Shown in pieces: positions 3,564 through 39,304 of a stretch of 52,082 bases of DNA. Made by a program: the position numbers and the translations under genes. Under the pieces are notes generated by a model. It searched no databases. It worked only from the letters and a program-made list of their open reading frames with translations, and was not told the DNA's origin. Source of the DNA: Verrucomicrobiota bacterium (GTDB lineage Bacteria; Verrucomicrobiota; Verrucomicrobiia; Limisphaerales; UBA11320); NCBI GenBank assembly GCA_016871475.1, contig VHDG01000001.1, forward strand, positions 1-52,082. The letters run 5' to 3'. Numbering within the stretch: position 1 is the first letter of the stretch; each line of letters starts with the position of its first letter.

Positions 3564-3569
3564 GGCGTG

Positions 3570-11390: not shown

Positions 11391-11473
11391 TGTTCAGTTT
11401 CGGTCGCCGTCGGGTGGGTCTCACCAGCGATGGCAACAAATCTTTTTTTCCCATACGGCGCTTCAGCTGCTTC

Positions 11474-14400: not shown

Positions 14401-15643
14401 GAACTTCCACTTGATCCACCAGCCATTCGCCTGCGCCGTTCAGCGCGACGAAGAGCTTGTCCGACATCGCGATGCCCGTCGCCGTGATCGTTTGCCACGC
14501 CACATGGGCTTGGGCCAATCTGCCGCGGCTGGCGCGCCAATTCGCCGCCGTGCTGTTATCCCTGTGAGGATTGATGCATTCGAGCGAGTAGCCGAATTCG
14601 TCCGGTCCAACCGGCCAGGGATGCCGGTCGTTGTAGCGCACCGTGTCCGCCACCCAGCCGAGCGCGTCGCGGAGCGTGAGTCGTTCGCCGCCGTCATCGA
14701 GTACGCCGACGAACGGCCCGACGACATTGGTGATGCCGAAGCGCAACGTTACCGCTTGCGGCACGGCCGCCACGACGAGATGCGCGCCCGCGGCCACCAC
14801 CGTGCCGGGCGGAAACGTGAACGCGATACCTTCAGTGAAAGCCCAGCCCGCGAGGTCCACCGGGTGCGTGCCGCGATTGAACAGCTCGACGTATTCGCCG
14901 AGTTCGTCGTCGCCCGCTTCGTAATATTGACCGGCATTCACGGCGTCGAACTTCTCGCGCAGCTCTTCGCGCTGAGGGAGGTACATGATTTCGTTGATGA
15001 CGATGGCGCTCCCACCGGGAACGCCGGGCTTGTTGGACACCCCGGGCGAATAGGGTTGCCCCACGCTCCAATTGGCCGGGGTATTGTTGTCAACGTCCGG
15101 CGAGATCAGTTCGAGGGACGCACCACCGCCATCGGCTTCACTGGGCCATGGAGCCGAGTCGTCGTACGAAACGAAATCGATCATTCGGCGAGGGCTGCCA
15201 TTGTCCTTGAGCCTGATCGTGTCGTCGCCATTGTCGAGGCGTCCGACGTAATTCCCCAAGATGTTCGTGACGCCGTAGAAAGCACCTGCTGCCGTGGCGT
15301 CGCGCGCAATGACCAGATACGCGCCGCCGAGCAAGATCGTTCCATCGGGAAACGCAAAATCCACACCGCCATCGACGATCCAGCCGGTCAAATCCACCGG
15401 CGTGCCGCCGCGGTTGTAGAGTTCAATGAACTCATCGCCGGTGTTGTTCGGGTCTTGGTGATACAGAATCTCGTTGATTACCACGTCGGTCGGTCCTGCG
15501 ATGAGCCGACTCCCTCCAAACGACATCAACATCAGGCAAACGACGGCAACGCCCTGAATGATAGAGCGAAGCCGAGCACATCGAGCGGTCGAGCGGACGC
15601 CCGCGCAACAATCGAGTGACAGGGGCAACAACTTCACGTTCAT
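11474..15643 (-). CDS. Secreted lamin-tail-domain (LTD x2) / CotH kinase-like protein containing a divergent A-module
   Basis: 1389 aa. LTD motifs VVINEILYHQDP..EFIELYNRG and IVINEIMYLP..YVELFNRG. CBM-like segment NLLANGSFEPDDSGW. CotH-type region YRGRRSRDDPKRPWKFQF..VRLHINGSFWGVYIGFE. CHB_HEX_C-like segment YVTLDGSDP..YTEPISI. It ends ..TRFFRLRER. Confidence 0.9.
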   Translation of the reverse strand: MNVKLLPLSLDCCAGVRSTARCARLRSIIQGVAVVCLMLMSFGGSRLIAGPTDVVINEILYHQDPNNTGDEFIELYNRGGTPVDLTGWIVDGGVDFAFPDGTILLGGAYLVIARDATAAGAFYGVTNILGNYVGRLDNGDDTIRLKDNGSPRRMIDFVSYDDSAPWPSEADGGGASLELISPDVDNNTPANWSVGQPYSPGVSNKPGVPGGSAIVINEIMYLPQREELREKFDAVNAGQYYEAGDDELGEYVELFNRGTHPVDLAGWAFTEGIAFTFPPGTVVAAGAHLVVAAVPQAVTLRFGITNVVGPFVGVLDDGGERLTLRDALGWVADTVRYNDRHPWPVGPDEFGYSLECINPHRDNSTAANWRASRGRLAQAHVAWQTITATGIAMSDKLFVALNGAGEWLVDQVEVRPAVGGANLLANGSFEPDDSGWTKVGNHSTSRRTDDAAFDGRGSFLVIAQGAGDGESNYVGVANVPGITIGQSYTITCRASFQKGADAVTIGFAGAGFSPLIAASGGIHNLAKDWSDWLNPSYGWSYRHRTGTVITARVARWRTADLGTNQPAWTAGGTTGTPGWCKSTGSSKAPGAPRPEYDFPTGSVMSYGPSEVWWTASSSQRVTISGGVWLLRRIGRSQHWYIKLNNTEITAGDLFNTNLTINSRSPLSFETGSKGPSALIVNVVAGDVLKFGATPLAPNRSDDYVGYDISLAFGESVAPPIIAPPVAGFIGCGTPGRLNSVGAEPLPPLVDGLTHFPDKPASTNDVLVTARVQGEAPLESVQLKTMMNAATNETWLEMFDDGLHGDGVANDGVFGVWVPARASQTLVHYQVVATDTRGVTTQFPYADDPSPTQAYFHYNGEINTRSTLFHLFIPTANLNRLNANPRSDDYVDCSLVIDHIAYPHVGARYRGRRSRDDPKRPWKFQFNKDHLYKTNRTYDTMYSIPLEQKIAFELFDSAGIDNLQHELVRLHINGSFWGVYIGFESPTGRWLGKHGHHEGGEVYKGRTVETPAQWKNSDLFHNQIVTDYDYWGAYNKKVRPLEPPDSLRELVDALNDMSDAQLLPWLDAHVDLDQWFKRWALNVCMNIDDFTGHNYYLFLPGEPGGKWKMLGYDFDSGFTFGRVGQIRALYGDGGGGDNPAWQRGKLYQRVSTNPTLRRIYLLTLRKMVRDVMKLEVIIPRIRELFTLMTPDRTADLARWSTIRTSINEATNVLTSQRRSLSNFLALASTGLPSPDKTPALSLANGEVQPGTTVSLTTQPGWLAYVTLDGSDPRLSLSRQLYTEPISIQQAGILRAAAILPVGQTLANGNWTDLAEATFTVVPRPRLIARAQGLSLQLSWAAPFTNHILEAATAIQGPWIGASGPQTQVGNEIHVGQSLSGPTRFFRLRER
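13508..14083 (-). repeat. Divergent A-module-like segment (aa 521-712 of the LTD-CotH protein)
   Basis: It keeps the order and spacing of the module landmarks: DWSDWLNPSYGWSY.., LGTNQPAW, TPGW, FPTGSVMSYGPSEVWWTA, ISGGVWLLRRIGRSQHWYIKLNN, and GDVLKF near the end. Confidence 0.5.
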
Positions 15644-24024: not shown

Positions 24025-27000
24025 TCAGGGATCGATCGCGAGGATTCGATAGAATCCAACGCCTTCGGAGGAGACCGGGAATACGAAGCGGAGACGGTCT
24101 CGAGTCGCTCTCTCAGCTCTCCCTTGTTCCTGCCAGGCCCCTTCGACAAGCCCACTTCGCACCTGGAGGGCGTAGGTCCGGCCGACGACGACTTCGCATT
24201 CCAAACTGAGATCGCGGTCCACCAGGGTCACGGTGACGATGCGGAGAGGGGGTTCCGGTGGAACCTCCGTTCCGTTGCTCCGCAGCGGGGAGGGGCTCTT
24301 GAAACGGGAGTACGGCGAGGGTGAAGCCTGAGGAAACCGGCCCTCGCTCTCATTCTCAGTCTGTTGTCCAAAGGTTACCGAATCGGACAGAGTACCGTCG
24401 GGCATAAAAAGTGCGATGATCTCCCCCGATTGTCCAAGCTTGAAGTTCACGTGTAAGTCGCGCTGTGCCTGATTGAGGGACGGACGATCGTCCGCCCAGA
24501 CGAGCAGATATCCGTCAGGCCCGATCTGCCTTCCTGGGGGGATGCGAAACTTTGCGGGCTCCTTCCAGTCATCCGTCAGCGTCCATCCCTCGAGAGAAAT
24601 CATTGTCCCCGAAGGGTTGTAGAGTTCGAACCAGTCAGAGAAGAGACCGCTTGCCGGATCGCGCAGGAAGTCTGTGTTTGCTGCCATCCATTCATTGATC
24701 ACGATGCGTGTCGCCGTCGGCAGCGGCTGGCGGAGAGTATTTGCGCGCCCGGGTGTGTACGGTGCGCCGTGGATCAAACCGCTCTGCAACGTCGCTCCGA
24801 AGACCACATCTGCACTGAAGGCATTCAGTTGATGCACCTCGACCGCCAACACGTTCTCCCCCGGACGAAGGCTGGCCGCTGGCACATCGAAGGGGCCTTC
24901 GATCGTCGCATCGTTGACGTTTCGCGTTGCGAACGTCATGGAGGAGACTTCCCCGGTAGGCATGCCGGAGCGGAACAGTTCCACGTTGTTGAGGTAAAAC
25001 ACCGCACCGTCGTCCACCAGAGTATACAGCCGGAGCGTTCCACCCGGACCGTAAGGTACGTCGTTTGTGATACGCGTTCGGAAATAGTAGGTGGTCGGCC
25101 CTAGCCGCAACGCCGTCCGCTTGGAGGCCGGCAACACTGCATTCTCCACAAAAAACAGCCCGGCGCCACTTGACCATGTCGAATCATCATAATCCTCCAA
25201 TCGCCAATCCTTCCTCAAATCACGCCCGGACTGATCGTAGCGCCAGACATTCGTGAAGCCCACGTAGGTGTAGGGTGCATTGGAAGGCTCTGGGGGCGCC
25301 GCAAACCAATTCCTGGGATGATCGTTATCTGACGCGACATCCATCAGCTGGAGGGAAGCCCGAGAGCCTTGGGGATTTGAAGGCCACGGCGCCGTTGTCC
25401 GATAGCTGACTTCATCCACCACAGCCGCCGGACTCTTTTGCGCCGGAGCCTGAACGAGCCGCAGCGTTTCGCCTTCCGGATCAAGCCGTCCCAAAAAGTA
25501 CCCCACGGGAGGGACAAAGTCAGGGTACGCTTCCCTGAAGCTTCCCGGACTGGACGCGATGACGACGAAACTGTTGGGGTGTAACAGGCTCCCCGCGGGG
25601 AAGACGAAGTCCACGCCCTCGAGTCGCCAGTCGGAAAGATCAAAGGCAGTGCTGGGTGAAGCGTTGAAGAGTTCCAGGAACTCGGCGCCCGGCAGCGGGG
25701 CTCGAGGTTGGATCTCGTTGATCACTACCGTGCGTTCGGCTCGATCGCTCGTGCCGGTGAACCTCACGCCCACCGCCAATTCGTTTGAGCCCACGAGTAG
25801 ACCCCATCGGTCGAGCCCGGCGATGCGTAGGTCGTTTGTCCCCGGGTGGAGCGGGACGGTCATCTCCCAAGCGATGGGCGTGGTCCAACGCGTCGGATAA
25901 GGCCGCCCATTGGCGAGCACTGTCTTGATGTGCACCGGGGCCGTGCCCCGAAGAATCACGAGATTTCGGTTCGTTTCGTAACCCGCAGCCGGAGGAGCGA
26001 GCAGTCGAAACTGAGACGTGTCCTCCAGGGCCACAGCGGTTCGAATGAAGTTCCGCCTCGCCTCCATCCAGGTCCTCAAAGGGGCGAGTGACCCCACGGG
26101 GACGGCATTCCCAGTCAACGCCGTTTCCAAGTCGCGGACACGACTCTCAAAAGCCGCCGAGGAATAAGGACCCTGAATGGCTTCTTTCAACGCCCGCAAA
26201 TAAGCGCGTCGAAAGGGCGGATGCTGATACATGCGGCCAATCGTCGGATCATTGACCGCATACAAGGAATCACTGGTGGAGGGGTTGTAGCTGCCAAGCC
26301 CATGGTCGAGATCCGTGACAATCATTTGCCAACGGCCATCCGTCGGCTTGTAGGCAAACATGTTCTTGCCACGTCCGTAGCCATACCCATCGCTGTCCTC
26401 GGTGATGTGGCGAATCGCGAACGCACGCATCCACTCCTCGACATCCACCAACGACTCGACCCTGGCGGTGTAGAGATCGGCGTTCCTTTCGTTCAACGCG
26501 TCGACAAGGCGGAAAATCTCCCGATAGTCGTCATCCCAACCGCCATTCGCTTTCTTCTCCCAGTTCCACCGATAACGAGCCTGCGCCTTCGTGCCTCCAA
26601 AAGCCGTGAAGGGCTCCAGGGTTGCGTTCACCCAGGATTCAATGATTCCCGAATCACTGAACTCAAACCAGTCATCAATCTTGAAGAGATCACCCCGGTC
26701 GTCCTCGGGAAACCAAGCCTTAATGAAATCCGTATTAGGTTGTTGCGTCTCTGCGCAGACGATCCCACGACGCGTTCCGTTGACCCAGAAATTCACGTAA
26801 CGTTTGTGGCTAAACGGAATGTCGAATCGATCGGCGAGATAGAACGACAGTTCTTCCCGAAGGAGGGTTGGATCCTTGCTATAGAGTTCCGGGGGGTCCA
26901 AGTAGAGCTCGTCCACTCCGAGGATGGGGTCGTCCTTGGGAGTCTCGAGGTTGAACGCGCAGAGATTCCTCGTGGGTCCGTTGTAGCCCGGTCGACTATA

Positions 27001-29475
27001 GGGACTCCCATGATAGCGGGCGCCCACGCCGTAAACGATCCGGGAATCCTGATAGATGAGGGTGCCATCCAGGAACTGGTTACTCAACGGAGGTCGGCGT
27101 TCCCATTCCTGGCGAACCGAGTCGGTCAGCCATAAACGGTAAACTCCAAACGATTGGGTCGAAACCGGGTCGCCGAACCTGACCACGCACTCGCGACCCG
27201 GCGCGTGGGCCGGGAAGACGCTCAGTTTGGACTCCCGGAAGCCGTCGCGCGCTTCGATGTAGAACGCCACGATCCCACCCCGTGGCTGGCCAGGCAGGCG
27301 CGCCGAGAACACACGATCGCCCGCATGGCGGTCACCGGCCATGGCATCATCTCGCATGACCACGGCATGCCACTCCATCGCCGGATCGATGCGATACCTC
27401 AGCAGCGGGTTCCCCTGTAGACCATCGACATCTTCCACGCTTGCGAAAACGGTCACCGTTTCGTCGGGAGCGGGAACCACGGGTTCGTGCCTCACGTCGA
27501 AGATCGCTGGACCGACATTGGGCTGAAACTGGCTGTTGGTCCGTCCGGGAGTTCCTAGATTCCTGGGCACAGGAAGTTGGGCGGAGAGTTCCAGCGGGTT
27601 GCCGCGAATTCGAATGAGGAGCAGGGGGGTACCACGAAGCCAGCGCGCTCTCGCCCGGATCACACCGGTTTGGCCGTTTGCCAATCGACCCGTCAGGTCT
27701 GTCTCCACGTTGTTCCCGCCCGTATCTCCACCCCCGGAACTTGAAACTCGATAAGCGCGTCCTCCGAAACCCAATGCCCCTTCGTAAACGCCGGAGGCGG
27801 AGTGATTGCCTGTGGCAACCCATCCCGCAGTATCCGTCTCGAAATCGGAACCGCGGACCAGATTCGGTTCCCCCAGCCTCGAAACCACCAAGTCGTCGAT
27901 GAGACATTCTCCTTTGCCGAGCTGTACCAACTGAAGCTCATCGTAAACGGCGGCTCCCAGCTCGAGAATCCCGACTCGCTCCAACTGGGTCCAAGTCCCC
28001 TTGCCCGTCTCGTCGCTGTCCGCCCAGTGGCCCGCTCGCTGATTGCTGCCGCGTGGATCCATCAGTTCCAAGCTGCTTCCGCCCCCATCTGCCCAGCGAC
28101 CCCACTGGCCCCCTTCGCCCCATTCAAACTCATTCACCACCTTTTCGATCGTGACCTGTTGTGAAATCCCTGTCGGCCCCGTTCGCGAAAAGGTCCTTGG
28201 CCTTATCAGCCGAACCTGCGGAAAGCCACGCCGTAAACTCCCCGAGAAACCTCCGACCACTTGCGAAGGGTCGATTCCCTGATAGTTCTCAAGGATCCGT
28301 TCGCGATTCTTCGCCACCACGACCATTCCGCCTGGGGACAGTTTCGAGCCGGAAGGAAACGTAAACCGGATCGTCCCTTCGAGGCGCCAGGCATCGAGAG
28401 ACACGGTGTCAGTTCCTCGGTTGAGCAGCTCAAGATACTCATCATCATCGTCGCCCGAGATCGGATGATACATCACCTCGTTGATAACGACGTCCTCAAC
28501 GACATGTGGACTGTTCCGCTGTCCAGGGGTGGGCGATACCGAGAATCCCAGTGGACCCACTCCATCCGGGAACCGACTGAGCGTGTCCGCAACATCCCCC
28601 AGTTCAACACGCACTGCGTCCTCAATCCTGGTTCGCTCGCGATTCTCCAGGAGCACGAGCGTTCTCGAGGTCGTTCCGGGAAGACCATGAAACGCTCGGA
28701 ATCCACCCGGGGGGATGACAGGTTGGGGAGCGATCTGATAGGGCGGCGAGTGTGGATCGATGAGGATCCAATAGCCCGTGGGATCGATGGCGGATTCCGA
28801 GCGATTCCAGACCTCGACGAAACGGGATGCGGGGTCAGGGTGATGAAGGCAGAGTTCGTTCAGCACGAGGGTTGCCTCATTCTCTGGCGCGGCTCGTTCG
28901 ATCACACCCGGGGTTCCCCCGATGAGTGAGCTCGCTTTCCAAGCCCGAGGGTTTCTTTCCCCCTGCGACGGGAAGGCAAGCACCAAGCTGGCGCCACCAC
29001 CCCCTGCGGCCGCGGGCCATGGGTGTCGGGATTGATACGGAATCTCAAGCAAACGGGCTCCGCTCCGATGCCGCAGTTCGAGAGTTCCGGAGCCGTCAGG
29101 CAGGTCCGTCTCGACACCTCCGAAAACCGTCGCGAGACCGTAAGCGTCCTTAAGACTCTGAGGGTGCGCGGCAACCACAAGAACGGCCCCGGGGGCCATC
29201 ACCGTGTTCGGAGGAAACCGATATTCCCAATCGCCAGTCAGCCGGAACCCGGACAGGTCCTCCGGGATCGGGCTTGAATTGTATATCTCAACGAATTCGA
29301 GGTTCCGCCCCGACGCTGCGCCGGACGGAGCGTACATCACCTCCGTTATAACGATGCCGGTTCTCCGGGAAGAAGGTCCGAGAGGCTCGCTCGCTTCCAG
29401 AGCCTCCCCTCCTGGCATAACAATCAACAGGACTGCTGCTACCCATCCCCGCTTGACGCGGTTCGCCCGCTGCAT
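24025..29475 (-). CDS. Giant secreted LTD (about 5 copies) / CotH kinase-like protein with C-terminal FYRI domain
   Basis: 1816 aa from the ATG at 29473-29475 (MQRANRVKRGWVAAVLLIV); an alternative ATG lies at 29499. LTD motifs: IVITEVMYAP..FVEIYN, LVLNELC..FVEVWN, VVINEVMYHP..YLELLN, VVINEIQP..FLELFN, IVINEWMA..WFELYN. CotH-type region GARYHGSPYSRPGY..NFWVNGTRRGIVCAE. It ends ..GVGFYRILAIDP. Confidence 0.88.
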   Translation of the reverse strand: MQRANRVKRGWVAAVLLIVMPGGEALEASEPLGPSSRRTGIVITEVMYAPSGAASGRNLEFVEIYNSSPIPEDLSGFRLTGDWEYRFPPNTVMAPGAVLVVAAHPQSLKDAYGLATVFGGVETDLPDGSGTLELRHRSGARLLEIPYQSRHPWPAAAGGGGASLVLAFPSQGERNPRAWKASSLIGGTPGVIERAAPENEATLVLNELCLHHPDPASRFVEVWNRSESAIDPTGYWILIDPHSPPYQIAPQPVIPPGGFRAFHGLPGTTSRTLVLLENRERTRIEDAVRVELGDVADTLSRFPDGVGPLGFSVSPTPGQRNSPHVVEDVVINEVMYHPISGDDDDEYLELLNRGTDTVSLDAWRLEGTIRFTFPSGSKLSPGGMVVVAKNRERILENYQGIDPSQVVGGFSGSLRRGFPQVRLIRPRTFSRTGPTGISQQVTIEKVVNEFEWGEGGQWGRWADGGGSSLELMDPRGSNQRAGHWADSDETGKGTWTQLERVGILELGAAVYDELQLVQLGKGECLIDDLVVSRLGEPNLVRGSDFETDTAGWVATGNHSASGVYEGALGFGGRAYRVSSSGGGDTGGNNVETDLTGRLANGQTGVIRARARWLRGTPLLLIRIRGNPLELSAQLPVPRNLGTPGRTNSQFQPNVGPAIFDVRHEPVVPAPDETVTVFASVEDVDGLQGNPLLRYRIDPAMEWHAVVMRDDAMAGDRHAGDRVFSARLPGQPRGGIVAFYIEARDGFRESKLSVFPAHAPGRECVVRFGDPVSTQSFGVYRLWLTDSVRQEWERRPPLSNQFLDGTLIYQDSRIVYGVGARYHGSPYSRPGYNGPTRNLCAFNLETPKDDPILGVDELYLDPPELYSKDPTLLREELSFYLADRFDIPFSHKRYVNFWVNGTRRGIVCAETQQPNTDFIKAWFPEDDRGDLFKIDDWFEFSDSGIIESWVNATLEPFTAFGGTKAQARYRWNWEKKANGGWDDDYREIFRLVDALNERNADLYTARVESLVDVEEWMRAFAIRHITEDSDGYGYGRGKNMFAYKPTDGRWQMIVTDLDHGLGSYNPSTSDSLYAVNDPTIGRMYQHPPFRRAYLRALKEAIQGPYSSAAFESRVRDLETALTGNAVPVGSLAPLRTWMEARRNFIRTAVALEDTSQFRLLAPPAAGYETNRNLVILRGTAPVHIKTVLANGRPYPTRWTTPIAWEMTVPLHPGTNDLRIAGLDRWGLLVGSNELAVGVRFTGTSDRAERTVVINEIQPRAPLPGAEFLELFNASPSTAFDLSDWRLEGVDFVFPAGSLLHPNSFVVIASSPGSFREAYPDFVPPVGYFLGRLDPEGETLRLVQAPAQKSPAAVVDEVSYRTTAPWPSNPQGSRASLQLMDVASDNDHPRNWFAAPPEPSNAPYTYVGFTNVWRYDQSGRDLRKDWRLEDYDDSTWSSGAGLFFVENAVLPASKRTALRLGPTTYYFRTRITNDVPYGPGGTLRLYTLVDDGAVFYLNNVELFRSGMPTGEVSSMTFATRNVNDATIEGPFDVPAASLRPGENVLAVEVHQLNAFSADVVFGATLQSGLIHGAPYTPGRANTLRQPLPTATRIVINEWMAANTDFLRDPASGLFSDWFELYNPSGTMISLEGWTLTDDWKEPAKFRIPPGRQIGPDGYLLVWADDRPSLNQAQRDLHVNFKLGQSGEIIALFMPDGTLSDSVTFGQQTENESEGRFPQASPSPYSRFKSPSPLRSNGTEVPPEPPLRIVTVTLVDRDLSLECEVVVGRTYALQVRSGLVEGAWQEQGRAERATRDRLRFVFPVSSEGVGFYRILAIDP

Positions 29476-29535
29476 GAATATTCTTAGCCCAAAGTGCATC
29501 TGACCATTCCGGATGCTTTTGATTGCCAAAAATAC

Positions 29536-31677
29536 ATGAATTCCGCCGGCTGTCAGGCTGAACTTTCGGGAGTGTTGATGGCGACTTGGCTGGGGTTCGG
29601 GTTGTGGGCCGAAGCGGGGACGCATTGGGCGTTTGAGCAGGTGCGGCGCCCGTCTGTGCCGAGGGTTGAGAACGCGGCGTGGCTGGCTACGCCCGTCGAC
29701 GCGTTCATCCTGGCGCAACAGGAAAAGGCGCATCTGAGTCCTTCGCAGCCTGCAAAGCCGGCTGTGTTGCTGCGTCGGCTCTACCTCGACCTCGTAGGAT
29801 TTCCTCCTTCGGCCGAAGCGGTGGAACGGTTCGAGCATGACGTTCGTCCCGTGGCCTACGCAGAAGCGGTCGAAGGTCTTTTGGCGTCGCCCCACTTCGG
29901 CGAGCGATGGGGAAGACATTGGCTCGACGTGGCACGTTATGCCGACAGTGGAGGGTATGAGGCCGATCTCCCGCGAACTGCCTGGCGTTACCGCGACTAT
30001 GTCATCGGGGCGCTGAATCAGAACCTTCCCTTCGATCAATTCGTGGAGGAGCAGCTGGCGGGGGATCTGCTTCCGGGAGCGACCGAGGAGCAACGCATCG
30101 CAACGGCTTTCCACGCCAACAACATGTTGGATGGCAACCTCCCCTGGGAGGCCAATATCGATCGCGTCAGCACGACGGCCACTGTCTTCCTTGGACTCAC
30201 CGTGGGTTGCGCGCAGTGCCACGACCACAAGACGGATCCTATTTCGACGAGAGAGTTCTACCAGCTCTACGCGTTTTTCAACGAGGCGGCGAATGACGAG
30301 CTGAGCCTGGCGACGCCGGCGGATCGGGCTCGACGCGACTCCGCGCAGCTGAAGATCAAGCAAGCCGAGGAGGAACTGGAGGATCATCGCCGGTCGCGGC
30401 AGTCCGAAATCGCCGCCTGGGCGACTCAACTTACTTCCGACCAACGGAGGAATCTCCCCGCTTCGGTGCGGAGCGCGCTGGAGAGTCCGGCGGCCACCCG
30501 AACCCGGGAGCAAGTTCAGGCCATTGAGGAAGCGTTCTGGGCACAGGATACGCGGGCCAAAGATTTAAGCCTGAGTCTCGAGCGGCTTAAAGCGGCTCAG
30601 CCTCAACTGCCGGTGATTCCGGTACTTTCCCACCGTACGAACGAAACCCGCATGTTCCTTCGCGGGAATCCCGAAACGCTGGGAGCCCCAGTCCAGGCCG
30701 GATTCCCCGCTGCATTATCTCCGCCCGACATCGGCGCTGGCCACTCTCTTACCCGGCGGGATCTCGCTCGATGGCTGATGTCCCCCCAGAATCCATTAAC
30801 GGCGCGCGTCACGGTCAACCGAATCTGGCAACAGTATTTCGGCCGAGGTCTGGTCGAGACAGAGAATGATTTCGGAATTCAAACACCTCGACCACTCCAT
30901 CAACCCCTTCTCGATTGGCTCGCTGCCGAGTTCATGTCCAGCGGCTGGAACGTGAAGCATATTCACCGTCTGCTCGTATCTTCCTCCACCTACCGGCAGT
31001 CGTCCCGCCGGCGTTCCGAGTTGGATCGCCACGACCCTGGAAATACACTCGTGGCGAGGCAACATCGTTCGCGTCTGGAGGCCGAGACGATCCGGGACAG
31101 TGCCCTCGTTGTCAGCGGGTTGATCGAGCATCGGATCGGAGGTCCCAGCGTGTTTCCTCACCAACCAGAGGGAGTTCTGGACTTTCGCGCCACCAAAGCG
31201 GAATGGGTGAAGAGTCAGGGAGCAGATCAATATCGTCGTGGCCTCTACACCTGGTTTTGGCGCTTGACCCCATACCCCTTCCTCACCCTGTTTGACGCCC
31301 CCGACGCTTTCACGACGCAGACGCAGCGAACGCGCTCTAACACCCCCACGCAGGCACTTACTCTCCTCAATGACCCTGTGTTCCTGGAAGCGGCTCAGGC
31401 CCTCGCTGCAAGAGTCCTCGAAGATGGAGGGGTGTCCACCTCCGATCGCATCCGATACGCCATCAGGCGCTGTTTGGGACGCTCCCCCACTTCCGACGAG
31501 ATCGAGACTCTGGAAGGCTTGTTGGAAGAACAGACCGCCGATTTCCGCAGCCGACCAGGAGAAGCAGCGCGCTTTCTTGGGCGTGAGTTCCCCGAATCCG
31601 AGGGAATCGAACGAGCGGCGTGGACGGTGGTCAGTCGAGCCCTGCTGAACCTGGATGAATTCATCAGCCGTGAATGA
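29536..31677 (+). CDS. DUF1549 + DUF1553 protein, pair 3 (no cytochrome or LamG domain)
   Basis: 713 aa from the ATG at 29536; an alternative ATG lies at 29578. [40 protein letters not shown] and GCAQCHDHKTDPI. It ends ..LLNLDEFISRE, like its two paralogs. Confidence 0.9.
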   Translation: MNSAGCQAELSGVLMATWLGFGLWAEAGTHWAFEQVRRPSVPRVENAAWLATPVDAFILAQQEKAHLSPSQPAKPAVLLRRLYLDLVGFPPSAEAVERFEHDVRPVAYAEAVEGLLASPHFGERWGRHWLDVARYADSGGYEADLPRTAWRYRDYVIGALNQNLPFDQFVEEQLAGDLLPGATEEQRIATAFHANNMLDGNLPWEANIDRVSTTATVFLGLTVGCAQCHDHKTDPISTREFYQLYAFFNEAANDELSLATPADRARRDSAQLKIKQAEEELEDHRRSRQSEIAAWATQLTSDQRRNLPASVRSALESPAATRTREQVQAIEEAFWAQDTRAKDLSLSLERLKAAQPQLPVIPVLSHRTNETRMFLRGNPETLGAPVQAGFPAALSPPDIGAGHSLTRRDLARWLMSPQNPLTARVTVNRIWQQYFGRGLVETENDFGIQTPRPLHQPLLDWLAAEFMSSGWNVKHIHRLLVSSSTYRQSSRRRSELDRHDPGNTLVARQHRSRLEAETIRDSALVVSGLIEHRIGGPSVFPHQPEGVLDFRATKAEWVKSQGADQYRRGLYTWFWRLTPYPFLTLFDAPDAFTTQTQRTRSNTPTQALTLLNDPVFLEAAQALAARVLEDGGVSTSDRIRYAIRRCLGRSPTSDEIETLEGLLEEQTADFRSRPGEAARFLGREFPESEGIERAAWTVVSRALLNLDEFISRE

Positions 31678-33149
31678 ACCCCATGCAGATCACCCAACCC
31701 GTTCAGCTTGCCTCTAATGCCCGCACGGTGCCGGGATTCGGCTCGCGGCGAGCCTTCCTCGGAGCGTGCGGCACGGCCCTCTTCAACGCTGCAGTGGTCC
31801 CCCTCCTCGCAGGTTCTCCCACAGCTGGCGATTCCGCTGGCCGTGTTGCCATATCGCCTTCCCGCCTTGGCCTCCCCCACTTCGTCCCTCGGGCAAAGAA
31901 CGTGATCTTTCTCTTCATGATCGGAGCGCCTAGCCAGCTCGACTTGTTTGATCACAAGCCGCTGCTGAACCAGCGCGAAGGCGAACCCTTGCCTGACTCG
32001 TTGCTGCGGAGGGCCAAATTCGCTCAGATCAAAGAGAAGCAGCCGAAGCTCTGGGGCACGCGTTGGGCTTTCGCGCAGCACGGGCAGTGCGGGGCGCAGG
32101 TGAGCGAACTCCTGCCTCATACGGCTTCCATCGTCGACCAGATCGCCTTCCTCAAGACCGTCAAAGCGGACGACGTGAACCATTCGTTCGGTGAGTTGCA
32201 GATGAACACGGGATGGAGGCAGTTCGGGAGGCCTAGCTTGGGCAGTTGGGTTGCCTACGGATTGGGAACGGAGTCCAAGGATCTGCCAGGCTTTGTTGTG
32301 CTCAGATCGGGGATGCACCCCCGAAGCAAGGGCGCGAACTACGGCAGCGCATTCCTGCCGTCGGCTTTTCAGGGTGTCCCCTTGCGGGAGAAAGGGGATG
32401 CCATTCTCAACCTGGGCATCCCTGATGGACTGGGCTTCAGCGGGCAGGGTCGGACGGTCGCCGCGATCAACCGACTCAACCAGATCCGCCACGAAGAAAC
32501 GGGCGATCCCGAGATCCTGGCTCGCATCTCCGCCTACGAACTGGCCTTTCGCATGCAGGCCTCGGCCCCCGGGTTGTTGGATCTCCGGGGTGAAAGTCCG
32601 AGCACGTTCTCAGCCTACGGATGTGACCCCGTGAAACCCTCGTTTGCCAGGAACTGCCTGCTGGCCCGGCGGTTGATCGAGCGAGGCGTCAGGTTCGTGC
32701 AGCTCTTCCATGGGGATTGGGATCATCATTCCAATATCGAGCAAGGTCTCCCTTCCATGTGTCGCAGTGTGGACCAGGCCTCAGCGGCCTTGGTCAAGGA
32801 CCTCGCCCACCGAGGATTACTCGACGACACTCTGGTGATCTGGGGTGGAGAATTTGGACGTGGAGCCGTCGCGCAAGTGGAATCCAACAAGCATGTTGGA
32901 CGCGATCATCACATCGATGCATTCACCCTTTGGATGGCTGGCGGCGGTGTTCGTCCTGGATTCACACTAGGCGAGACCGACGAGTTCGGATACCTGCCGC
33001 TTCGCAATTCCGTTCACATCCACGATCTCCATGCCACGATTCTTCACTTGCTCGGACTGGACCACGAGAGGTTGACATTCCGCTTCGCTGGCCGGGATTT
33101 TAGATTGACAGATGTGGCTGGCGACGTCGTCACCCCGTTGCTGCTCTGA
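31674..33149 (+). CDS. DUF1501 family protein, pair 3
   Basis: 491 aa. The ATG overlaps the upstream TGA (ATGA at 31674-31677). Twin-arginine-like GSRRAFLGACG. Blocks MIGAPSQLDLFDHKP, WDHHS, GEFGRGA and GRDHH. Confidence 0.92.
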   Translation: MNPMQITQPVQLASNARTVPGFGSRRAFLGACGTALFNAAVVPLLAGSPTAGDSAGRVAISPSRLGLPHFVPRAKNVIFLFMIGAPSQLDLFDHKPLLNQREGEPLPDSLLRRAKFAQIKEKQPKLWGTRWAFAQHGQCGAQVSELLPHTASIVDQIAFLKTVKADDVNHSFGELQMNTGWRQFGRPSLGSWVAYGLGTESKDLPGFVVLRSGMHPRSKGANYGSAFLPSAFQGVPLREKGDAILNLGIPDGLGFSGQGRTVAAINRLNQIRHEETGDPEILARISAYELAFRMQASAPGLLDLRGESPSTFSAYGCDPVKPSFARNCLLARRLIERGVRFVQLFHGDWDHHSNIEQGLPSMCRSVDQASAALVKDLAHRGLLDDTLVIWGGEFGRGAVAQVESNKHVGRDHHIDAFTLWMAGGGVRPGFTLGETDEFGYLPLRNSVHIHDLHATILHLLGLDHERLTFRFAGRDFRLTDVAGDVVTPLLL

Positions 33150-33414
33150 AAACGGATCACACCCTCCGGCCTGGCCGCGCCACAATACTTTCCCCCTTAA
33201 GACACAGGACAGACCCTGCACTCTGTTCACTTCGTTTTGTTACTAAGAATCACTTTTGGGTTGACCAGAGTTCTGGTCCATGCTATTCACTCACTCAATC
33301 GCCCCTCTCCCGAGCTCTTTTCGCGCAGGCCCCTGCGATCCTGTGTCGCCAGTCTGGGAATGCCTTATCGGTCGGGAAGGGGACAGACCGCTCAGGTCGA
33401 TAACGCACAATCAG

Positions 33415-36400
33415 ATGAAAACATCCCAGCGACTGTTAGTTCTTTTCTTGATGGGCTTCCCCTTCACTTCGGGCTTGCTTCATGCGCAACAGGTGTGGAA
33501 TTGGGCTCTCGACTACGTTCCCAACGTTGTTCCTCCACGGGAGATCGGGACCGAGGGCGCCTGGTCCTATGGGTACGATGCCAACACGTCGGATGAATTG
33601 AGCGCGCCCTTTGAGTTCGTGCCGTTTCCGATCTTTGGCAACCACATATGGGGCGGGGGCGATTACCATTTCAGTGGCCCGAATCCGGCGCTTCTTGCCA
33701 AACAGGCGAATGGAATGATCATCCACACTGCGCCGAATGCGAAACAACCTGTCGTTGTGCGGTGGACTGCGACACGGGCGATGACGGTGAACATCACGGG
33801 TCGCGCGTACAAGTTTGCGTTCGACGAGAACAACGGCCGCACGCAGGAGTTTTATGTCCGCAAGAATGGTGAATCTCCGCTGACATTTGGCACGGTATCC
33901 GATGCCACTCTCGACTCGGGGGCTCCTTTGGCATTCGCCGCCACCACCACCGTTCAGCTCGGAGACACAATCGATACCTTCGCCGTGAGAACGGCTGACA
34001 AGATTCAAGGGTTCCTGGGGATCGAGCTTGTGCTCCATGAGGTATTGGCTGGAGCTCCCACCATCACTGTTCACCCTCAGGCGGCGGACGCACTTCCTGG
34101 GAGCACCGCGAGCCTCTCGGTGACAGCGTCGGGCGACGCACCCTTGGCTTATCAGTGGCATCGCAATGGAAACGACATCGCGGGAGCCGATGGAGCCACC
34201 CTCATGCTCCCGGCGGCAACGGTCACCGACGCCGGGGTATATGGCGTCAGGGTGAGCAACGGTCTTGGGACCGCGGAGAGCCTGACGGTTGTTGTGGAGG
34301 TGAATCCGCCTCCCTCAACCACTCGACACGACCTCCGCGATGATTTCCGGCTTTCCTCGAACCCTACCGACCGGGGCTGGCAGTATAGTCGCGCGCTCCG
34401 AGACGGGGGCGGTCGGGTTCGACCGATCACTCCCAATTGGAACGAGCCGGACTTCGGATCCGGACAGCTCGGATGGGAAGGTCCGGGGAACGCACCCCAT
34501 GCCGGGTGGGCGAGGCGCATCGACAATGGCAATCCGACTCCCACCTACGACGACCCGGTGGGAGCCATTCTCACTCATGGCCCCACGAGTGCTGTTTGGA
34601 AATCCCCGCCCGGCGATCCCAACCGTTTTGCGAATATCCGTGGCGACATCTACAACATCCGCAAGTTTGGGCGATCGGGTACCTGGAGGATTTTCAAGAA
34701 CTCGACTGAGATCACTTCTGGCACCGTGGATGACAACAGCGGGACCTCGACTGCTCCCAAGAGCTTCGTTCACGGCTCAGCAGGGCCGAGTGTTTTAGAA
34801 GGGATTCCCTACCAGCCCGGCGATGCGTTCCGGCTTGAGATTCTTCACGATGATTTCGCGGCGGTGAACTTCACTATTGAAACGACGGCATCCCCACCCG
34901 ATCCGTTGATCACCGTGCAACCTCAGGGTCGGGTGGTCTCTCCGGGAACTGAGGTCACTCTGCGTGTTGTTGCCGAAGGCACTGCACCCCTGACGTACCA
35001 GTGGAAGCGAAATGGGGTCGACCTTCCGGGACGAACCGCCGACACGCTGGTGATTCCCTTTGCCACGGAGACCGCGGATTACCAAGTGCTGGTGACGAGC
35101 GCCAAGGGCAGTCGACTGAGCAGTTCGGCGACTGTGGTAGTTGCCGACCGCTCGCCCGGCGAACCTTGGGACCTGGTTGCTGATTTCCAGCCCGGCAAAG
35201 TTCCCGCTGTGGACGTGGGTCCCGATGGCTCGTGGTCGTACGGTTACGATGCCCGGACAAACGATGATGTGCTGGCGCCCCTTCAGTTCGTCCCCATGCC
35301 ATTGTACGCGCAGCACGTCATTGGTAACGCAGACTACCACATTAGCGCGCCGAACCCCGGGAGCATCGCTCCACGAGGCAGTGGCTTGTATATTCACACC
35401 TCTGATCAGCCAAACCAACAAGCCATCATTCTTCGATGGACTGCCCGACGCCCTATGCGAATCCACATCATGGGGAGCGCGTACAAGTATGAAGTCGAGG
35501 GTAATGGCCGAACTCAGGATTTCTTTCTCCGGAAGAACAGCGGCCCTCTCCTTGCCTCAGGCACGGTGTCGGATGACACGGTCCGGAACCTTGGGACTGA
35601 ACTGCCCATCGCTGCTGAGAATATTTCGATGTTAGCCGGCGACTTCATAGACCTCTTCGTTTCCCGGCATCCGGGAAGCGTGCAAGGATTTTTGGGCGTG
35701 GAGCTCGTCATCAGTGAGGTCCTGTCGGATGTCGGATTGGACTTTGCCTTGGACGCCAACCCGACAGCCACTGGGTGGCAGTACAGCGAGTCGCTCGGCA
35801 ACGGGGGAGGGCCTGTGGGTGGTGCCGTACCGAACTGGAATCAACCCGACTTCGGCCCGGGTCAGACTGGATGGCAAGGGGTTCGGGCAGGGGCTCACGC
35901 AGGGTGGGCGAGGCGCATCGACAATGGAAACGGCACCCCGACATACGATGATCCTGTCGACACCGTGCTGACCCATGGGCCAACGAGTGTGAAGTGGACC
36001 GCCCCGGTGGGTTCAGGCCCAGGCCACCTGGCCATTCGGGGAGGGCTGTGGAACATCCGACACTTCGGTCGGAGCGGAACGTGGAAGCTCTGGAAGAACG
36101 ACACCCAATTGATTAGCGAAGGCGCCATTGATGACGCCAACGGCACTTCGTTAAGTCCGAGGAGCTACGCTTCTGGCAGTGGAGGTGCGGCTGGTTTGCA
36201 AAACATCCCCTATCAGGACGGGGATTCCATTCGGCTCGAAGTTCTCAACGGTGACTTCGTCGGCGTCCGGTTATCAATCAGCACCTACAAGATCGTAGTG
36301 GATCCGCCCACCATCACGCTTCAACCCCGCAGCGTCGTGGCTTTGGTTGGCGCCGCCGCGGTCTATCGGGTCGAGGCCAGCGGGCCGCCACCACTGGCAT

Positions 36401-37269
36401 ACCAATGGAAATTCAATGACACCGACATCCCAGGTGCGACAACCTCAATGCTTCAACTTGGCAATGTCACCGCTTCCTCCGCGGGTACGTATCACGTGGT
36501 GGTTTCCAACCCAGGTGGCTCCGTCGAAAGCGCGAGAGTGACGCTAACCGTCGACGACACATTCTCGGGTCCAGCCCGTCAACAGTCATCCGATGCCGAC
36601 GGATTGCTGGTTCTGGAAGCTGAGAACTTCGATCGTTCCACCCCGGCCGGCCGCTGGGAGTGGATTCCCATCGCTGGCGGGGTCGAGGCGACGCCGAACG
36701 AAGGTCGGAACGTGAATGTCAACATAGCCGATAGCCCACGATTGGACTACAAGGTCCTCTTTGTTCGGCCCGGCATCTACTCCGTTTGGCTGCGCGGCCT
36801 AGGTGACAGCGCTCCGGGACCCAGTGCAAATGACTCCGTCAATCTGGGCATTGATTTCTCTCTCCCGAATTCCAGCGATCGCATTACAGGTTTCCCCGAG
36901 GGAGCCGGTCGAGTCTGGAGCCGATCCACTCTCGACAACGTGCCCGCTACGCTCGAAGTGGTGTCGGGCGGCCTTCACGTTCTCAACGTGTGGATGCGGG
37001 AGGATGGATTTGTCCTGGATAAGATCCTGATCACCAGCAACCCGAACCTCATTCCCACTGGAGATGGCCCACCGGAGAGCGGGACAGCTGGAGTGGTGCT
37101 CAAGGGAACGCTTGCCCCAAATGGAAGACTGATCCTCACGTGGAACGGGACGGCCCGATTGGAAGAAGCCAATGGTTTGGCCGGCCCGTGGTCGGAGATC
37201 AACGGCGCCTCCAGCCCTCACGATGTCCCCGTCCTAGGCGCAGCGAGGTTCTTCCGACTCCGAGAATGA
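33415..37269 (+). CDS. Secreted repeat protein: B-Ig-A-Ig-B-A-Ig-CBM-like-Cterm(FFRL)
   Basis: 1284 aa from the ATG at 33415 (MKTSQRLLVLFLMGFPFTSGLLHA signal). ORF-track start 33280 looks over-extended. It has two A-modules, two B-modules and three Ig-like domains (PLAYQW/PLTYQW). A CBM-like beta-sandwich spans ~36577-37065 (LLVLEAENF..WMREDGFVLDKILIT). It ends ..AARFFRLRE. Confidence 0.9.
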   Translation: MKTSQRLLVLFLMGFPFTSGLLHAQQVWNWALDYVPNVVPPREIGTEGAWSYGYDANTSDELSAPFEFVPFPIFGNHIWGGGDYHFSGPNPALLAKQANGMIIHTAPNAKQPVVVRWTATRAMTVNITGRAYKFAFDENNGRTQEFYVRKNGESPLTFGTVSDATLDSGAPLAFAATTTVQLGDTIDTFAVRTADKIQGFLGIELVLHEVLAGAPTITVHPQAADALPGSTASLSVTASGDAPLAYQWHRNGNDIAGADGATLMLPAATVTDAGVYGVRVSNGLGTAESLTVVVEVNPPPSTTRHDLRDDFRLSSNPTDRGWQYSRALRDGGGRVRPITPNWNEPDFGSGQLGWEGPGNAPHAGWARRIDNGNPTPTYDDPVGAILTHGPTSAVWKSPPGDPNRFANIRGDIYNIRKFGRSGTWRIFKNSTEITSGTVDDNSGTSTAPKSFVHGSAGPSVLEGIPYQPGDAFRLEILHDDFAAVNFTIETTASPPDPLITVQPQGRVVSPGTEVTLRVVAEGTAPLTYQWKRNGVDLPGRTADTLVIPFATETADYQVLVTSAKGSRLSSSATVVVADRSPGEPWDLVADFQPGKVPAVDVGPDGSWSYGYDARTNDDVLAPLQFVPMPLYAQHVIGNADYHISAPNPGSIAPRGSGLYIHTSDQPNQQAIILRWTARRPMRIHIMGSAYKYEVEGNGRTQDFFLRKNSGPLLASGTVSDDTVRNLGTELPIAAENISMLAGDFIDLFVSRHPGSVQGFLGVELVISEVLSDVGLDFALDANPTATGWQYSESLGNGGGPVGGAVPNWNQPDFGPGQTGWQGVRAGAHAGWARRIDNGNGTPTYDDPVDTVLTHGPTSVKWTAPVGSGPGHLAIRGGLWNIRHFGRSGTWKLWKNDTQLISEGAIDDANGTSLSPRSYASGSGGAAGLQNIPYQDGDSIRLEVLNGDFVGVRLSISTYKIVVDPPTITLQPRSVVALVGAAAVYRVEASGPPPLAYQWKFNDTDIPGATTSMLQLGNVTASSAGTYHVVVSNPGGSVESARVTLTVDDTFSGPARQQSSDADGLLVLEAENFDRSTPAGRWEWIPIAGGVEATPNEGRNVNVNIADSPRLDYKVLFVRPGIYSVWLRGLGDSAPGPSANDSVNLGIDFSLPNSSDRITGFPEGAGRVWSRSTLDNVPATLEVVSGGLHVLNVWMREDGFVLDKILITSNPNLIPTGDGPPESGTAGVVLKGTLAPNGRLILTWNGTARLEEANGLAGPWSEINGASSPHDVPVLGAARFFRLRE
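33490..34044 (+). repeat. B-module copy B1
   Basis: GAWSYGYDANTSDELSAPFEFVPFP..GGGDYHFSGPNP..IIHTAP..VVVRWTATRAMTVNITGRAYKF..GRTQEFYVRKNG..GTVSD..GDTIDTFAV..IQGFLGIELVLHEV. It aligns along its whole length with B2. Confidence 0.75.
34321..34884 (+). repeat. A-module copy A7
   Basis: DFRLSSNPTDRGWQYSRA..NWNEPDFGSGQLGW..HAGWARRIDNGNPTPTYDDPVG..THG..GDIYNIRKFGRSGTWRIFKNS..GDAFRLEILHDDFAAVNFTIET. Confidence 0.85.
35164..35721 (+). repeat. B-module copy B2
   Basis: GSWSYGYDARTNDDVLAPLQFVPMP..GNADYHISAPNP..YIHTSD..AIILRWTARRPMRIHIMGSAYKY..GRTQDFFLRKNS..GTVSD..GDFIDLFVS..VQGFLGVELVISEV. Confidence 0.75.
35722..36285 (+). repeat. A-module copy A8
   Basis: [108 protein letters not shown]. Confidence 0.85.
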
Positions 37270-37313: not shown

Positions 37314-38018
37314 TCAGGACGCGGGGGTGATGAAAATCCCCTTCGATCCCGTGTCCCAGTCGGCGATCGCAAACGGCTGGCCGCCGTTGCCGCCACGATT
37401 CCAAATCCCCAGGTCATCGCTGCTCAATTGGCCGGCGGTCTTCGTCACCCTGATCGCTCCGCCTGGACTGTCAAAAACGGCCATGCCTCCAGTGACGTGC
37501 AGCCGTGATTGAGGATCGCCTGTGCCGATGCCGACGTTGCCCGCGTCATCCACGAACACTGCGTTGGCCGGGCTGCCGTCCGCGGCGTTCAACGCGTTGC
37601 CGCTGATGCCGAGAGTTTTCAGGGCGAAGGGCGCCGGCGTGATGGGATGGCGCGGGCTTAACGGAGTGAAGTCCCCGCTGCCCGCGCTCCGCACGGCGAC
37701 TTCCAGCAGGCGCGCGTTATTTCCGGGGCTGGCCCACACAGCCGGGTCGAAGTTGAGGTGCGCCGTGAACAGGCCGTTGCTCACCGGCACGTTCGTAATG
37801 GTCAGCGGCCCGGCGATCGGAAAAATGCCGTTGGCGTTGAAAATCCTGAACTGGAAGTCGTAAACGCCGCCGGCCGGCCCGGGTCCGTCACTGAGCCGGC
37901 CTTGATACGCCACCGCCGTGTTCGGGGTGACCGGAGTGATTTGCGCGGCGAGGTCCGAAACCCAGCCGAGGTTGGCGATGGCGGTGAGGAACAAGACTTC
38001 GGTGATGCGTGTATTCAT
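37314..38018 (-). CDS. Tail-fibre-like protein, N-terminal portion only (probably 3'-truncated)
   Basis: 234 aa. Signal-like N-terminus, then YQGRLSDGPGPAGGVYDFQFRIF..NGLFTAHLNF..LSPRHPITPAPFA..NVGIGTGDPQSRLHV, typical of bacterial tail-fibre-domain proteins. It lacks the C-terminal chaperone domain. The stop falls inside a region still homologous to the neighbouring gene. Confidence 0.6.
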   Translation of the reverse strand: MNTRITEVLFLTAIANLGWVSDLAAQITPVTPNTAVAYQGRLSDGPGPAGGVYDFQFRIFNANGIFPIAGPLTITNVPVSNGLFTAHLNFDPAVWASPGNNARLLEVAVRSAGSGDFTPLSPRHPITPAPFALKTLGISGNALNAADGSPANAVFVDDAGNVGIGTGDPQSRLHVTGGMAVFDSPGGAIRVTKTAGQLSSDDLGIWNRGGNGGQPFAIADWDTGSKGIFITPAS

Positions 38019-38119: not shown

Positions 38120-39304
38120 TCATCGCACGCCTCCGTCAAGTTTCTGCGTTAGTGCCTCAACCAGCGCCTTGAGTTCCTCCACCGTGCGCCTCAGCTCCGC
38201 GTTGTCCGCGTCGCGCCGTTTCAATTCTTCCGCGAGCCTGGCGTCCTGTTTCTTTTGTAATTCCCGCAGCGCCTCCACCACCAGCGCCTCCAGGCCGCGC
38301 ACGGTCACCCGCTTGAAGCCGTCCGGGCCGGTCTCGACCCAGTCAGGAAAAACCGTCTCCACTTCCTGCGCCACCAGTCCCATGCGTTCGCCGGAGAGTT
38401 CGTGGATTTTAGCCGGGTCGATGTATTCGAAGTTCACCCCGTGTAGCGCCAACAACTTGTCCAGTGCGCCGGCCAGCGGGCGGATGTTTTTCTTGAGCCG
38501 CGCATCCGAGGTGGAACTCCACGCGCCGCCGCCGGGTTTGCCCGCTGAGCCGTTGACGTGCAGCGTGTGAGTCGGAGGGTTCACGTTGATTCCTACGTTA
38601 TTACCTCGGATGATGAAGTCTTTGGGATTGGCAGAATTCCCGATGCCCAGTTCCAGAGCGGTGCCGGCGCCCCTGCCCGCCTGACGGAAGGCCCAGCTTC
38701 GTTCGATATTCAGATTCAGCAGTTCGGCGCCGTCGCCCTGGCTGGTGATGCGCACGGGACCCGCCACGTCGAGCGGATACGCCGGGCTGATCGATCCAAT
38801 GCCGACATTGCCGGAAGCGGTGTTGACGAAGATCCCCTTCGATCCCGTTTGCCAGTCTGCAATCGCAAACGGCTGGCCGCCGCTGCCGCCGCGATTCCAG
38901 ATACCGAGGTCTTCGTTGTTCAATTGTCCGGCGGTCTTGGCCACCCTGATGGCTCCGCCTGGATTGTCAAAAACAGCAGCGCCTCCAGCGACATGCAGCC
39001 TGGATTGAGGATCGCTTGTGCCGATGCCGACGTTGCCTGAGGCGCGGAAGACATCATGGCCGGAGCGGGTCCAGACGCCAATCGTGGGATCCAGGCTGGT
39101 CGCCGTGATCGAACCTGCGTTCACCCCATCCGCGATCAACCCCGGAGTGAACGATTCTAGAGTGAAAAGATAGGCCGCCCCGGCATTCCCCGCCCCGGTG
39201 TCGTCGGTGTAGGCACCGACGAGCACGCGGTTGTTTCCGACCCCAGCCACGGCGAAGCCGAAGCTGTCGTCCTCCGCCGGCGTGGGATTATGGAAGGTGG
39301 TCAA
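38120..39304 (-). CDS. Tail-fibre-domain protein with C-terminal intramolecular-chaperone (peptidase S74-like) domain; 5'-truncated
   Basis: C-terminus SDARLKKNI..LHGVNFEYI..GLVAQEVETVFPDWV, followed by a coiled-coil tail, matches the S74 auto-processing chaperone domain. The N-terminus is FG-GAP-like (SFGFAVAGVGNNRVLVGAYTDDTGAGNAGAAYLF). The ORF-track start is a TTG. The frame stays open upstream to a stop at 39407-39409 and encodes another FG-GAP repeat (AIGAHQNDAGAINTGSAYLF) with no ATG or signal peptide. Confidence 0.65.
   Translation of the reverse strand: MTTFHNPTPAEDDSFGFAVAGVGNNRVLVGAYTDDTGAGNAGAAYLFTLESFTPGLIADGVNAGSITATSLDPTIGVWTRSGHDVFRASGNVGIGTSDPQSRLHVAGGAAVFDNPGGAIRVAKTAGQLNNEDLGIWNRGGSGGQPFAIADWQTGSKGIFVNTASGNVGIGSISPAYPLDVAGPVRITSQGDGAELLNLNIERSWAFRQAGRGAGTALELGIGNSANPKDFIIRGNNVGINVNPPTHTLHVNGSAGKPGGGAWSSTSDARLKKNIRPLAGALDKLLALHGVNFEYIDPAKIHELSGERMGLVAQEVETVFPDWVETGPDGFKRVTVRGLEALVVEALRELQKKQDARLAEELKRRDADNAELRRTVEELKALVEALTQKLDGGVR

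Follow-up and report, generated by a model that had tools for sequence, protein, structure and literature searches.

Among the described systems closest to the locus analysed here are the PSCyt-PSD1 (DUF1549/DUF1553) proteins that bear carbohydrate-binding modules (CBMs) and are paired with DUF1501 proteins, and the CBM6, CBM35 and CBM36 families, which secreted proteins carry as appended modules, often in several copies. He et al. (2017, PMC5615132) report that known CBMs, CBM_6 among them, are a frequent part of PSCyt genes, whose function is unknown. Our locus lies on contig VHDG01000001.1 of a Verrucomicrobiota bacterium (assembly GCA_016871475.1), of which positions 1 to 52,082 were analysed; this whole stretch of 52,082 nucleotides is called the window below. 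One of its genes, directly downstream of a PSCyt2/PSD1-DUF1501 pair, encodes a 1284-residue protein in which two kinds of module, A and B, alternate between immunoglobulin (Ig)-like spacers. We favour the reading, with a probability of about 0.55, that A and B are subfamilies of an unnamed jelly-roll superfamily and that the protein is a multivalent extracellular binder, likely of glycans, which cooperates with the neighbouring gene pair.

An earlier note on this DNA had described the protein as B1-Ig-A7-Ig-B2-A8-Ig-CBM-like-C-terminus and had proposed, from a layout shared by the second halves of the modules, that A and B are diverged paralogs of one fold. Pfam and local hidden Markov models (HMMs) return the same module order, the "CBM-like" part being a GH115_C-like sandwich, and the span that had been singled out (33490..36285) encodes residues 26-957, that is, B1 through A8. 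B1 and B2 do align from end to end (BLASTP, 47% identity, E 5e-61), and every B motif listed in the note is an invariant block of that alignment. The likeness between second halves can also be seen with single sequences, since B2 and A8 match over 105 residues at 28% identity (BLASTP, E 3e-4) in that half only. What did not stand is the restriction to that half, since the homology spans the entire module. When the window's nine A copies are made into a profile and compared with B1+B2, still only the second halves align (90.7% probability, E 1.3e-6, A 91-191 with B 87-184). The same window-only A profile matches a 14-module B family, built from proteins found by an exhaustive B1+B2 profile search, over 165 columns and nearly the full length of both (hhalign, 96.8%, E 2.6e-10, A 7-192 with B 3-190). 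The real comparison scores 68.2, against 12.6±2.0 (maximum 19.2) for 60 column-shuffled B controls and 17.9 for a reversed alignment, and these controls effectively exclude a chance resemblance of A and B.

Sequences intermediate between the two types strengthen the comparison further, to 99.0% (hhalign, E 4.6e-18) when they are added. This bridging group (P0013, P0024, P0029, P0030 and P0035-37; P and L numbers are our handles for proteins and loci) carries an N-terminal "D[FW]S..NPNG.W.Y" motif, and its members are matched by both the A HMM and the B HMM (P0013 at 1e-10 and 1e-8, respectively). Over its full length it compares with the window A modules at E 1.8e-15 and with the B family at E 1.3e-25. 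One could still argue that A and B are unrelated and that their second halves came to resemble each other by convergence or through beta-sandwich composition, given that two-sequence HMMs detect the opposite type at E of about 1-8 only and that, with just two B sequences in the profile, the alignment is confined to the second half. We consider this highly improbable: the end-to-end profile match lies far above the shuffle maximum, the bridging sequences were found independently by both HMMs, and the order of secondary structure agrees. The end-to-end match, the bridging group and the agreement of strands thus argue for common ancestry over the entire module, and they support A and B as diverged subfamilies of one unnamed domain superfamily of ~190 residues, in line with the paralogy first proposed.

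Recurring across the superfamily are "D-[FWY]-...-NP/P-...-G-x-W-x-Y" at the N-terminus, an "H" strand, the motifs "W-T-A-P/R", "I-x-G", "R-...-K/L-N" and "G-D", and a hydrophobic strand at the end. Between A and B, the first halves differ where loops have gained or lost residues: five residues are inserted in B ahead of the G-x-W-x-Y strand, and the loops of A are long (NWNQPDFG…HAGWA.RIDNGN…YDDP). Over 19 A modules, the mean majority frequency is 0.74 in the first half versus 0.63 in the second, and across the B family the first half is the most variable part. We suspect that the conserved second half forms a sandwich core common to A and B. The loop-rich first half would then be the seat of two differing ligand specificities, most likely for glycans, because it differs between A and B yet is the best conserved part within A.

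AlphaFold models of B1 (pLDDT, the predicted local distance difference test, 85; predicted template modelling score 0.84) and A8 (94.2 and 0.91) were built from separate alignments. When their DSSP states are mapped through the hhalign residue correspondence, the strand order agrees: 80% of states are the same and 87% of A strand residues fall on B strand residues, with 37-52% in shifted registers. Foldseek places CBM6, CBM35, CBM36, CBM29, CBM22 and Cry toxin domain III among the PDB matches of both models, and the entries common to both lists are CBM6/35 jelly-rolls (8j3x, 5la0/5la2, 3zm8, 2w46, 5fui and 2w87). A viral structure library gave no match at E 1e-3 or better. The models thus indicate that the A/B fold is likely a beta-jelly-roll, its nearest solved relatives being CBM6/35/36-type modules that are weakly matched.

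Beta-jelly-rolls include enzymes, for example PL7 and GH16, and A and B might accordingly be small catalytic domains, of a polysaccharide lyase or glycosidase-like sort, with the protein acting as a multi-catalytic enzyme. The residues conserved throughout the superfamily do include H, R, N and D, and the genomic neighbourhood holds DUF1501, a sulfatase-like family. We nonetheless find a catalytic role improbable. No PL7 or other jelly-roll lyase and no GH16 enzyme is named among the 100 PDB Foldseek matches listed, the small domain-sized matches are non-catalytic CBMs, and no Pfam enzyme family matches. Several of the larger matches are multidomain glycoside hydrolases and a transferase (for example 5la0/5la2, 3ac0, 5x7o and 6d50), where the match may lie in any of the domains. 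Furthermore, the first repeat protein of the window strings six near-identical A modules (M1-M6) on Ig spacers, an arrangement typical of binding modules and not of enzymes.

Relatives of the modules are few. An exhaustive hmmsearch with the B1+B2 profile over 1.84 billion representatives returned 30 proteins, two of which, P0015 (a low-complexity repeat) and P0032, were judged false matches and excluded. A word-indexed search with B1+B2 found nothing and, with the 14-member B alignment, 4 proteins only. Scanning species genomes for B with the pattern G[AS]WSYGYD gave 87 candidates, none of which was confirmed, and a metagenome scan yielded, besides the P0009 locus already known, only one distant locus. 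Close A modules are also rare, with seven fragments in a word-indexed set of 5.8 billion and six loci in 185,579 species genomes; four of these loci are from metagenome-assembled genomes (MAGs) labelled Planctomycetaceae/Planctomycetia, one from an "Akkermansia muciniphila" MAG and one from a "Chitinophaga" MAG. Proteins with B alone, which the note had proposed to look for, do exist. Several relatives, including P0012, P0019, P0022, P0036 and P0037, consist of a signal peptide, one module and a PEP-CTERM tail, while P0010 and P0011 have several B modules with CHB_HEX_C/Fn3_assoc between them and no A. Elsewhere the module is joined to F5/8 type C (P0024), to LamG, HYR and PKD (P0031) or to Big_7 (P0030). 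P0009 reads B-Ig-A-Ig-B-Ig-…-GH115_C-like-C-terminal domain and lacks A8; a second lineage has thus kept the B-A-B core found in the window protein. A8 itself is nearest to M6 of the six-module protein (69% identity) and not to A7 (54%), which suggests that it was gained through module shuffling.

We place the protein outside the cytoplasm in a binding role because of its signal peptide, its Ig and GH115_C-like partner domains, and relatives that carry PEP-CTERM, CHB_HEX_C, F5/8 type C, LamG or PKD domains. The 1284-residue protein is exported by way of its Sec signal peptide as a B-A-B-A chain strung on Ig-like spacers and, in the mechanism we favour, would serve as a multivalent binder with two binding specificities. 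A and B would recognise different ligands or different epitopes, and their alternation would make binding avid. The protein could plausibly cooperate with the adjacent PSCyt/PSD1-DUF1501 pair by feeding substrate to it or positioning substrate for it.

The link to PSCyt/PSD1-DUF1501 is drawn because of gene adjacency, a cluster found at L008-L010, the protein P0038 and permuted A modules within PSD1 proteins. At L008-L010 the P0009 gene, a gene for four A modules, a 480-residue unknown, a PSCyt1-PSCyt2-PSD1 gene with a permuted A module, a DUF1501 gene and an MFS gene are contiguous. The B-only protein P0038 is encoded after a DUF1501 gene. The window holds two further PSCyt/PSD1 + DUF1501 pairs, and the pair at 2121..6674 (minus strand) is followed by the six-A protein and then by an LTD/CotH protein. 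Scanned for promoters and terminators, the 265-bp gap ahead of the target gene shows one weak terminator-like hairpin at 33207..33228 (plus strand; 7 pairs, 3 G-C). On the JGI and Logan metagenome contigs of L008-L010 and L016, the cluster starts with a prepilin-type N_methyl gene and a 120-residue gene, followed by P0009; the corresponding gene set of the window is split between 584..15643 and 29494..37269. P0009 and the multi-B protein P0010 are each immediately preceded by a prepilin-type N_methyl (DUF1559-like) gene (at L008, 8771..9532, and at L012, 1901..2728, respectively), and none adjoins the target gene in the window.

The A module within PSD1 proteins is an insert near the C-terminus of the PSCyt1-PSCyt2-PSD1 protein and is circularly permuted. 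The same permuted order recurs in P0004, P0007 and the PSD1 open reading frames (ORFs) of L002-L010, and it is conserved in PSD1 proteins of several MAGs labelled Planctomycetaceae. Six of the loci are genome loci (L002-L007), five of them complete and L007 cut at the contig end. The internal junction of the permuted module has no spacer, as is true of M3-M4, M5-M6 and B2-A8: only 3 residues separate the HMM envelopes of M3-M4 and of M5-M6 and, as the note had pointed out, B2 (ending ...ELVISEVLSD) runs directly into A8 (opening VGLDFALDANPT). By its sequence the permuted module looks like a piece excised from an A-A tandem, that is, a permutation by duplication. A spacer-less tandem and a circularly permuted derivative at one locus would make a clean natural example of that process.

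Several observations nevertheless weigh against a glycan binder that works with the gene pair. The two structure models are not fully independent, in that the alignment for A8 held bridging sequences found by the B profile. The CBM matches in Foldseek are weak (E 1e-4 to 1e-3, probability ~1.0, template modelling (TM) scores 0.3-0.5, root-mean-square deviation 4-10 Å), and the same lists hold TNF/C1q, Cry toxin domain III and haemagglutinin, jelly-rolls serving non-sugar roles too. Among 14 B and 18 A/bridging modules there is no CBM_6, CBM_35 or CBM36 Pfam match at E up to 1; CBM53 matches a single member, at E 0.084. Co-transcription of the DUF1501 and target genes is uncertain given the weak hairpin between them. 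Lastly, not every relative is linked to PSD1-DUF1501, P0010 and P0013 lying in other genomic contexts, and these genomes hold so many such pairs that some chance adjacency is expected.

These points leave room for a role in which the modules would build a cell-surface coat as structural or adhesive blocks, or would mediate protein-protein interactions, with no specific glycan ligand and with the alternation of A and B a mere product of shuffling. The Ig spacers and a C-terminal domain common to four giant secreted proteins of the locus fit such a role, as do the anchoring of single-module relatives by PEP-CTERM, the occurrence of some relatives beside RHS/YD toxin genes or with cadherin-like domains, the TNF/C1q-like and haemagglutinin folds among the jelly-roll matches, and a module tree in which A8 groups with M6 and not with A7. 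We regard this as possible but somewhat unlikely. CBM6/35/36/29/22 dominate the top structural neighbours; GH115_C-like, CHB_HEX_C and F5/8 type C domains co-occur with the module; the module is inserted in PSCyt-PSD1 proteins, where known CBMs occur (PMC5615132); and the strong conservation of the loop-bearing half of A suggests a specific site over a passive spacer.

A stronger version of the binding role is that A and B constitute a new CBM family dedicated to substrate capture for the PSCyt/PSD1-DUF1501 systems of Planctomycetota and Verrucomicrobiota, delivered either as separate secreted multivalent proteins (the 1284-residue and six-A proteins) or as permuted inserts in PSD1 that arose through duplication from an A-A tandem lacking a spacer. 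We hold this to be doubtful. If it were true, the ligands of A and B would provide the first experimental handle on what these systems act on.

In either form, the binder would be built from a domain that has so far escaped naming. The four A/B stretches of the 1284-residue protein have no Pfam match, nor do the 14 B and 18 A/bridging modules at E up to 1, the CBM53 match excepted; NCBIfam contributes nothing further there, and no NCBIfam model spans the module body above its cut-off. The best NCBIfam match, floc_PepA (NF033554), covers only the PEP-CTERM tail of P0012 (residues 200-232; 30.3 bits, cut-off 80), and the other PEP-CTERM family matches are mostly on the sorting tail as well. The floc_PepA match to P0037 (20 bits, cut-off 80) extends into the module body (residues 120-264) and is an unproven lead. 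DUF1775/YcnI, which appeared on the six-A protein, was set aside: its 29.6 bits are summed over six repeats, no single stretch passes and single modules show none. A search of PDB sequences with the A and B profiles gave noise only (L23 at E 0.81, 5cd6 at E 0.012, IF-2 at E 0.7), the relatives are annotated throughout as "hypothetical protein" or not at all, and no account of the domain turned up in literature searches. A/B is thus an unnamed new domain family in an otherwise ordinary sort of surface protein.

The only long ORF that fits the feature is 33280..37269 (plus strand), and its Met46 (nucleotide 33415) starts the 1284-residue protein (33415..37269; Table). We prefer this start because it yields a complete signal peptide and agrees with that of P0009, which has the same N-terminal layout (MKTQ...AQA, then VWDL) with its first B module directly after the predicted cleavage site. 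The signal peptide (MKTSQRLLVLFLMGFPFTSGLLHAQQ), read from the translation, is of Sec type and of good quality. The first ATG of the ORF, at 33280, would add 45 residues with no signal-like features, and the gene call of the public assembly (P0008, 1272 residues) begins at an internal methionine within the signal peptide (MGFPFTSG…). The Ig spacers pass the Pfam gathering score for Ig-type domains, with 103 bits for Ig_3 over three stretches and 67.8 bits for I-set. Pfam finds no GH115 catalytic domain in the protein, PF17829 (GH115_C) alone being present, and matches neither PF07589 nor any PSCyt or PSD domain there.

Table. Coordinates of the 1284-residue protein's domains and of related features in the window.
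Feature	Position	Strand	Basis and remarks
Signal peptide, residues 1-25	33415..33489	+	Translation; same layout in P0009; mature protein opens directly with B1
B1 module, residues 27-211	33493..34047	+	B HMM 1-189; BLASTP against B2; AlphaFold pLDDT 85
Ig-like spacer 1 (I-set/Ig_3), residues 215-297	34057..34305	+	Pfam I-set 215-289
A7 module, residues 303-491	34321..34887	+	A HMM 1-190, E 1.2e-117
Ig-like spacer 2, residues 496-577	34900..35145	+	Pfam Ig_3; weak K319L-like PKD match 507-576
B2 module, residues 584-771	35164..35727	+	B HMM 1-190, E 3e-113
A8 module, residues 773-958	35731..36288	+	A HMM 3-190, E 3e-114; AlphaFold pLDDT 94
Ig-like spacer 3, residues 964-1048	36304..36558	+	Pfam Ig_3 964-1032
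GH115_C-like beta-sandwich, residues 1061-1221	36595..37077	+	PF17829, E 2.9e-12, 47.2 bits (cut-off 24.1)
C-terminal domain of ~58 residues (...FFRLRE) and stop, residues 1227-1284	37093..37269	+	Local HMM
Proteins ending in the common C-terminal domain	6759..11390, 11474..15643, 24025..29475, 33415..37269	-, -, -, +	Local HMM, E 1e-19 to 1e-28
PSCyt2/PSD1 gene and DUF1501 gene	29494..33149	+	Pfam; directly upstream of the 1284-residue protein gene, 265-bp gap, same strand
First repeat protein, six A modules M1-M6	6759..11390	-	A HMM, six domains, E 3e-53 to 6e-92
Permuted A module in PSCyt1-PSCyt2-PSD1 protein (gene 3570..6674)	3834..4403	-	A HMM 38-188 then 3-36
Diverged A-like module in LTD/CotH protein (gene 11474..15643)	13508..14092	-	A HMM 3-161, E 1.6e-18

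The common C-terminal domain (~55-70 residues, …L.W.G.g.Lq.a..l.g.W……sp..v……FFRLr) closes four large secreted proteins encoded in the window. Pfam does not match it; it is present too in P0009 and in the four-A neighbour of P0009, and may be a candidate sorting, anchoring or secretion domain. In the LTD/CotH protein, the diverged A-like module (29% identity with A8) has the LTD domains on one side and the CotH kinase-like domain on the other. L002 (CAMAVD010000143.1) is syntenic with window positions 3570..15643 (CotH+A, six-A and PSD1+permuted A genes; 64% identity), and its LTD/CotH protein has the diverged module too. The Akkermansia muciniphila label of the L002 MAG is doubtful because its gene content is rich in PSCyt/PSD1. 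Downstream of the target, the adjacent genes 37314..38018 and 38120..39304 (both minus strand) share a near-identical stretch of ~70 residues (GNVGIGT.DPQSRLHV.GG.AVFD.PGGAIRV.KTAGQL…DLGIWNRGG.GGQPFAIADW.TGSKGIF), and the longer one (38120..39304) has FG-GAP_2 and Peptidase_S74 (tail-fibre chaperone-like) matches.

The homology of A and B would not in itself surprise specialists, and we attach more weight to the adjacency and fusion with PSCyt/PSD1-DUF1501, in which a co-travelling binding module offers a testable entry point. The analysis also defines the limits of the domain, divides it into A, B and a broader "NPNG-W" group, and gives it a confident fold model; Pfam, NCBIfam and PDB sequences leave this domain uncovered, and it marks secreted and PEP-CTERM-anchored proteins in poorly studied bacteria of the Planctomycetes-Verrucomicrobia-Chlamydiae (PVC) type.

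Set against known systems, the module is nearest in structure to CBM6, CBM35 and CBM36 (PDB 2cdp, 2w46, 1ux7 and 8j3x; galactose-binding-domain-like), which rank best among the structural neighbours of the A8 and B1 models alike, and like them it is appended, often in repeats, to secreted proteins. It differs in having no Pfam CBM or PDB sequence match and TM scores of 0.3-0.5 only, and in its size, ~190 residues versus ~120-140 for the CBMs, its first half bearing long additional loops. The single-module relatives that end in PEP-CTERM recall exosortase-sorted proteins (TIGR02595, PF07589), whereas the window protein ends in the ~58-residue conserved domain instead. With the PSCyt-PSD1 proteins paired with DUF1501 it is connected by position, its gene following such a pair, and by the insertion of A in PSD1; it has no PSCyt or PSD domain of its own, however, and the link names no ligand. 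In overall plan it resembles the Ig-spaced, multi-modular surface lectins and adhesins of bacteria, with which it shares a signal peptide and repeated binding-type modules between Ig-like domains, but from which it is set apart by an unnamed module family whose two strongly diverged subtypes alternate in a single chain.

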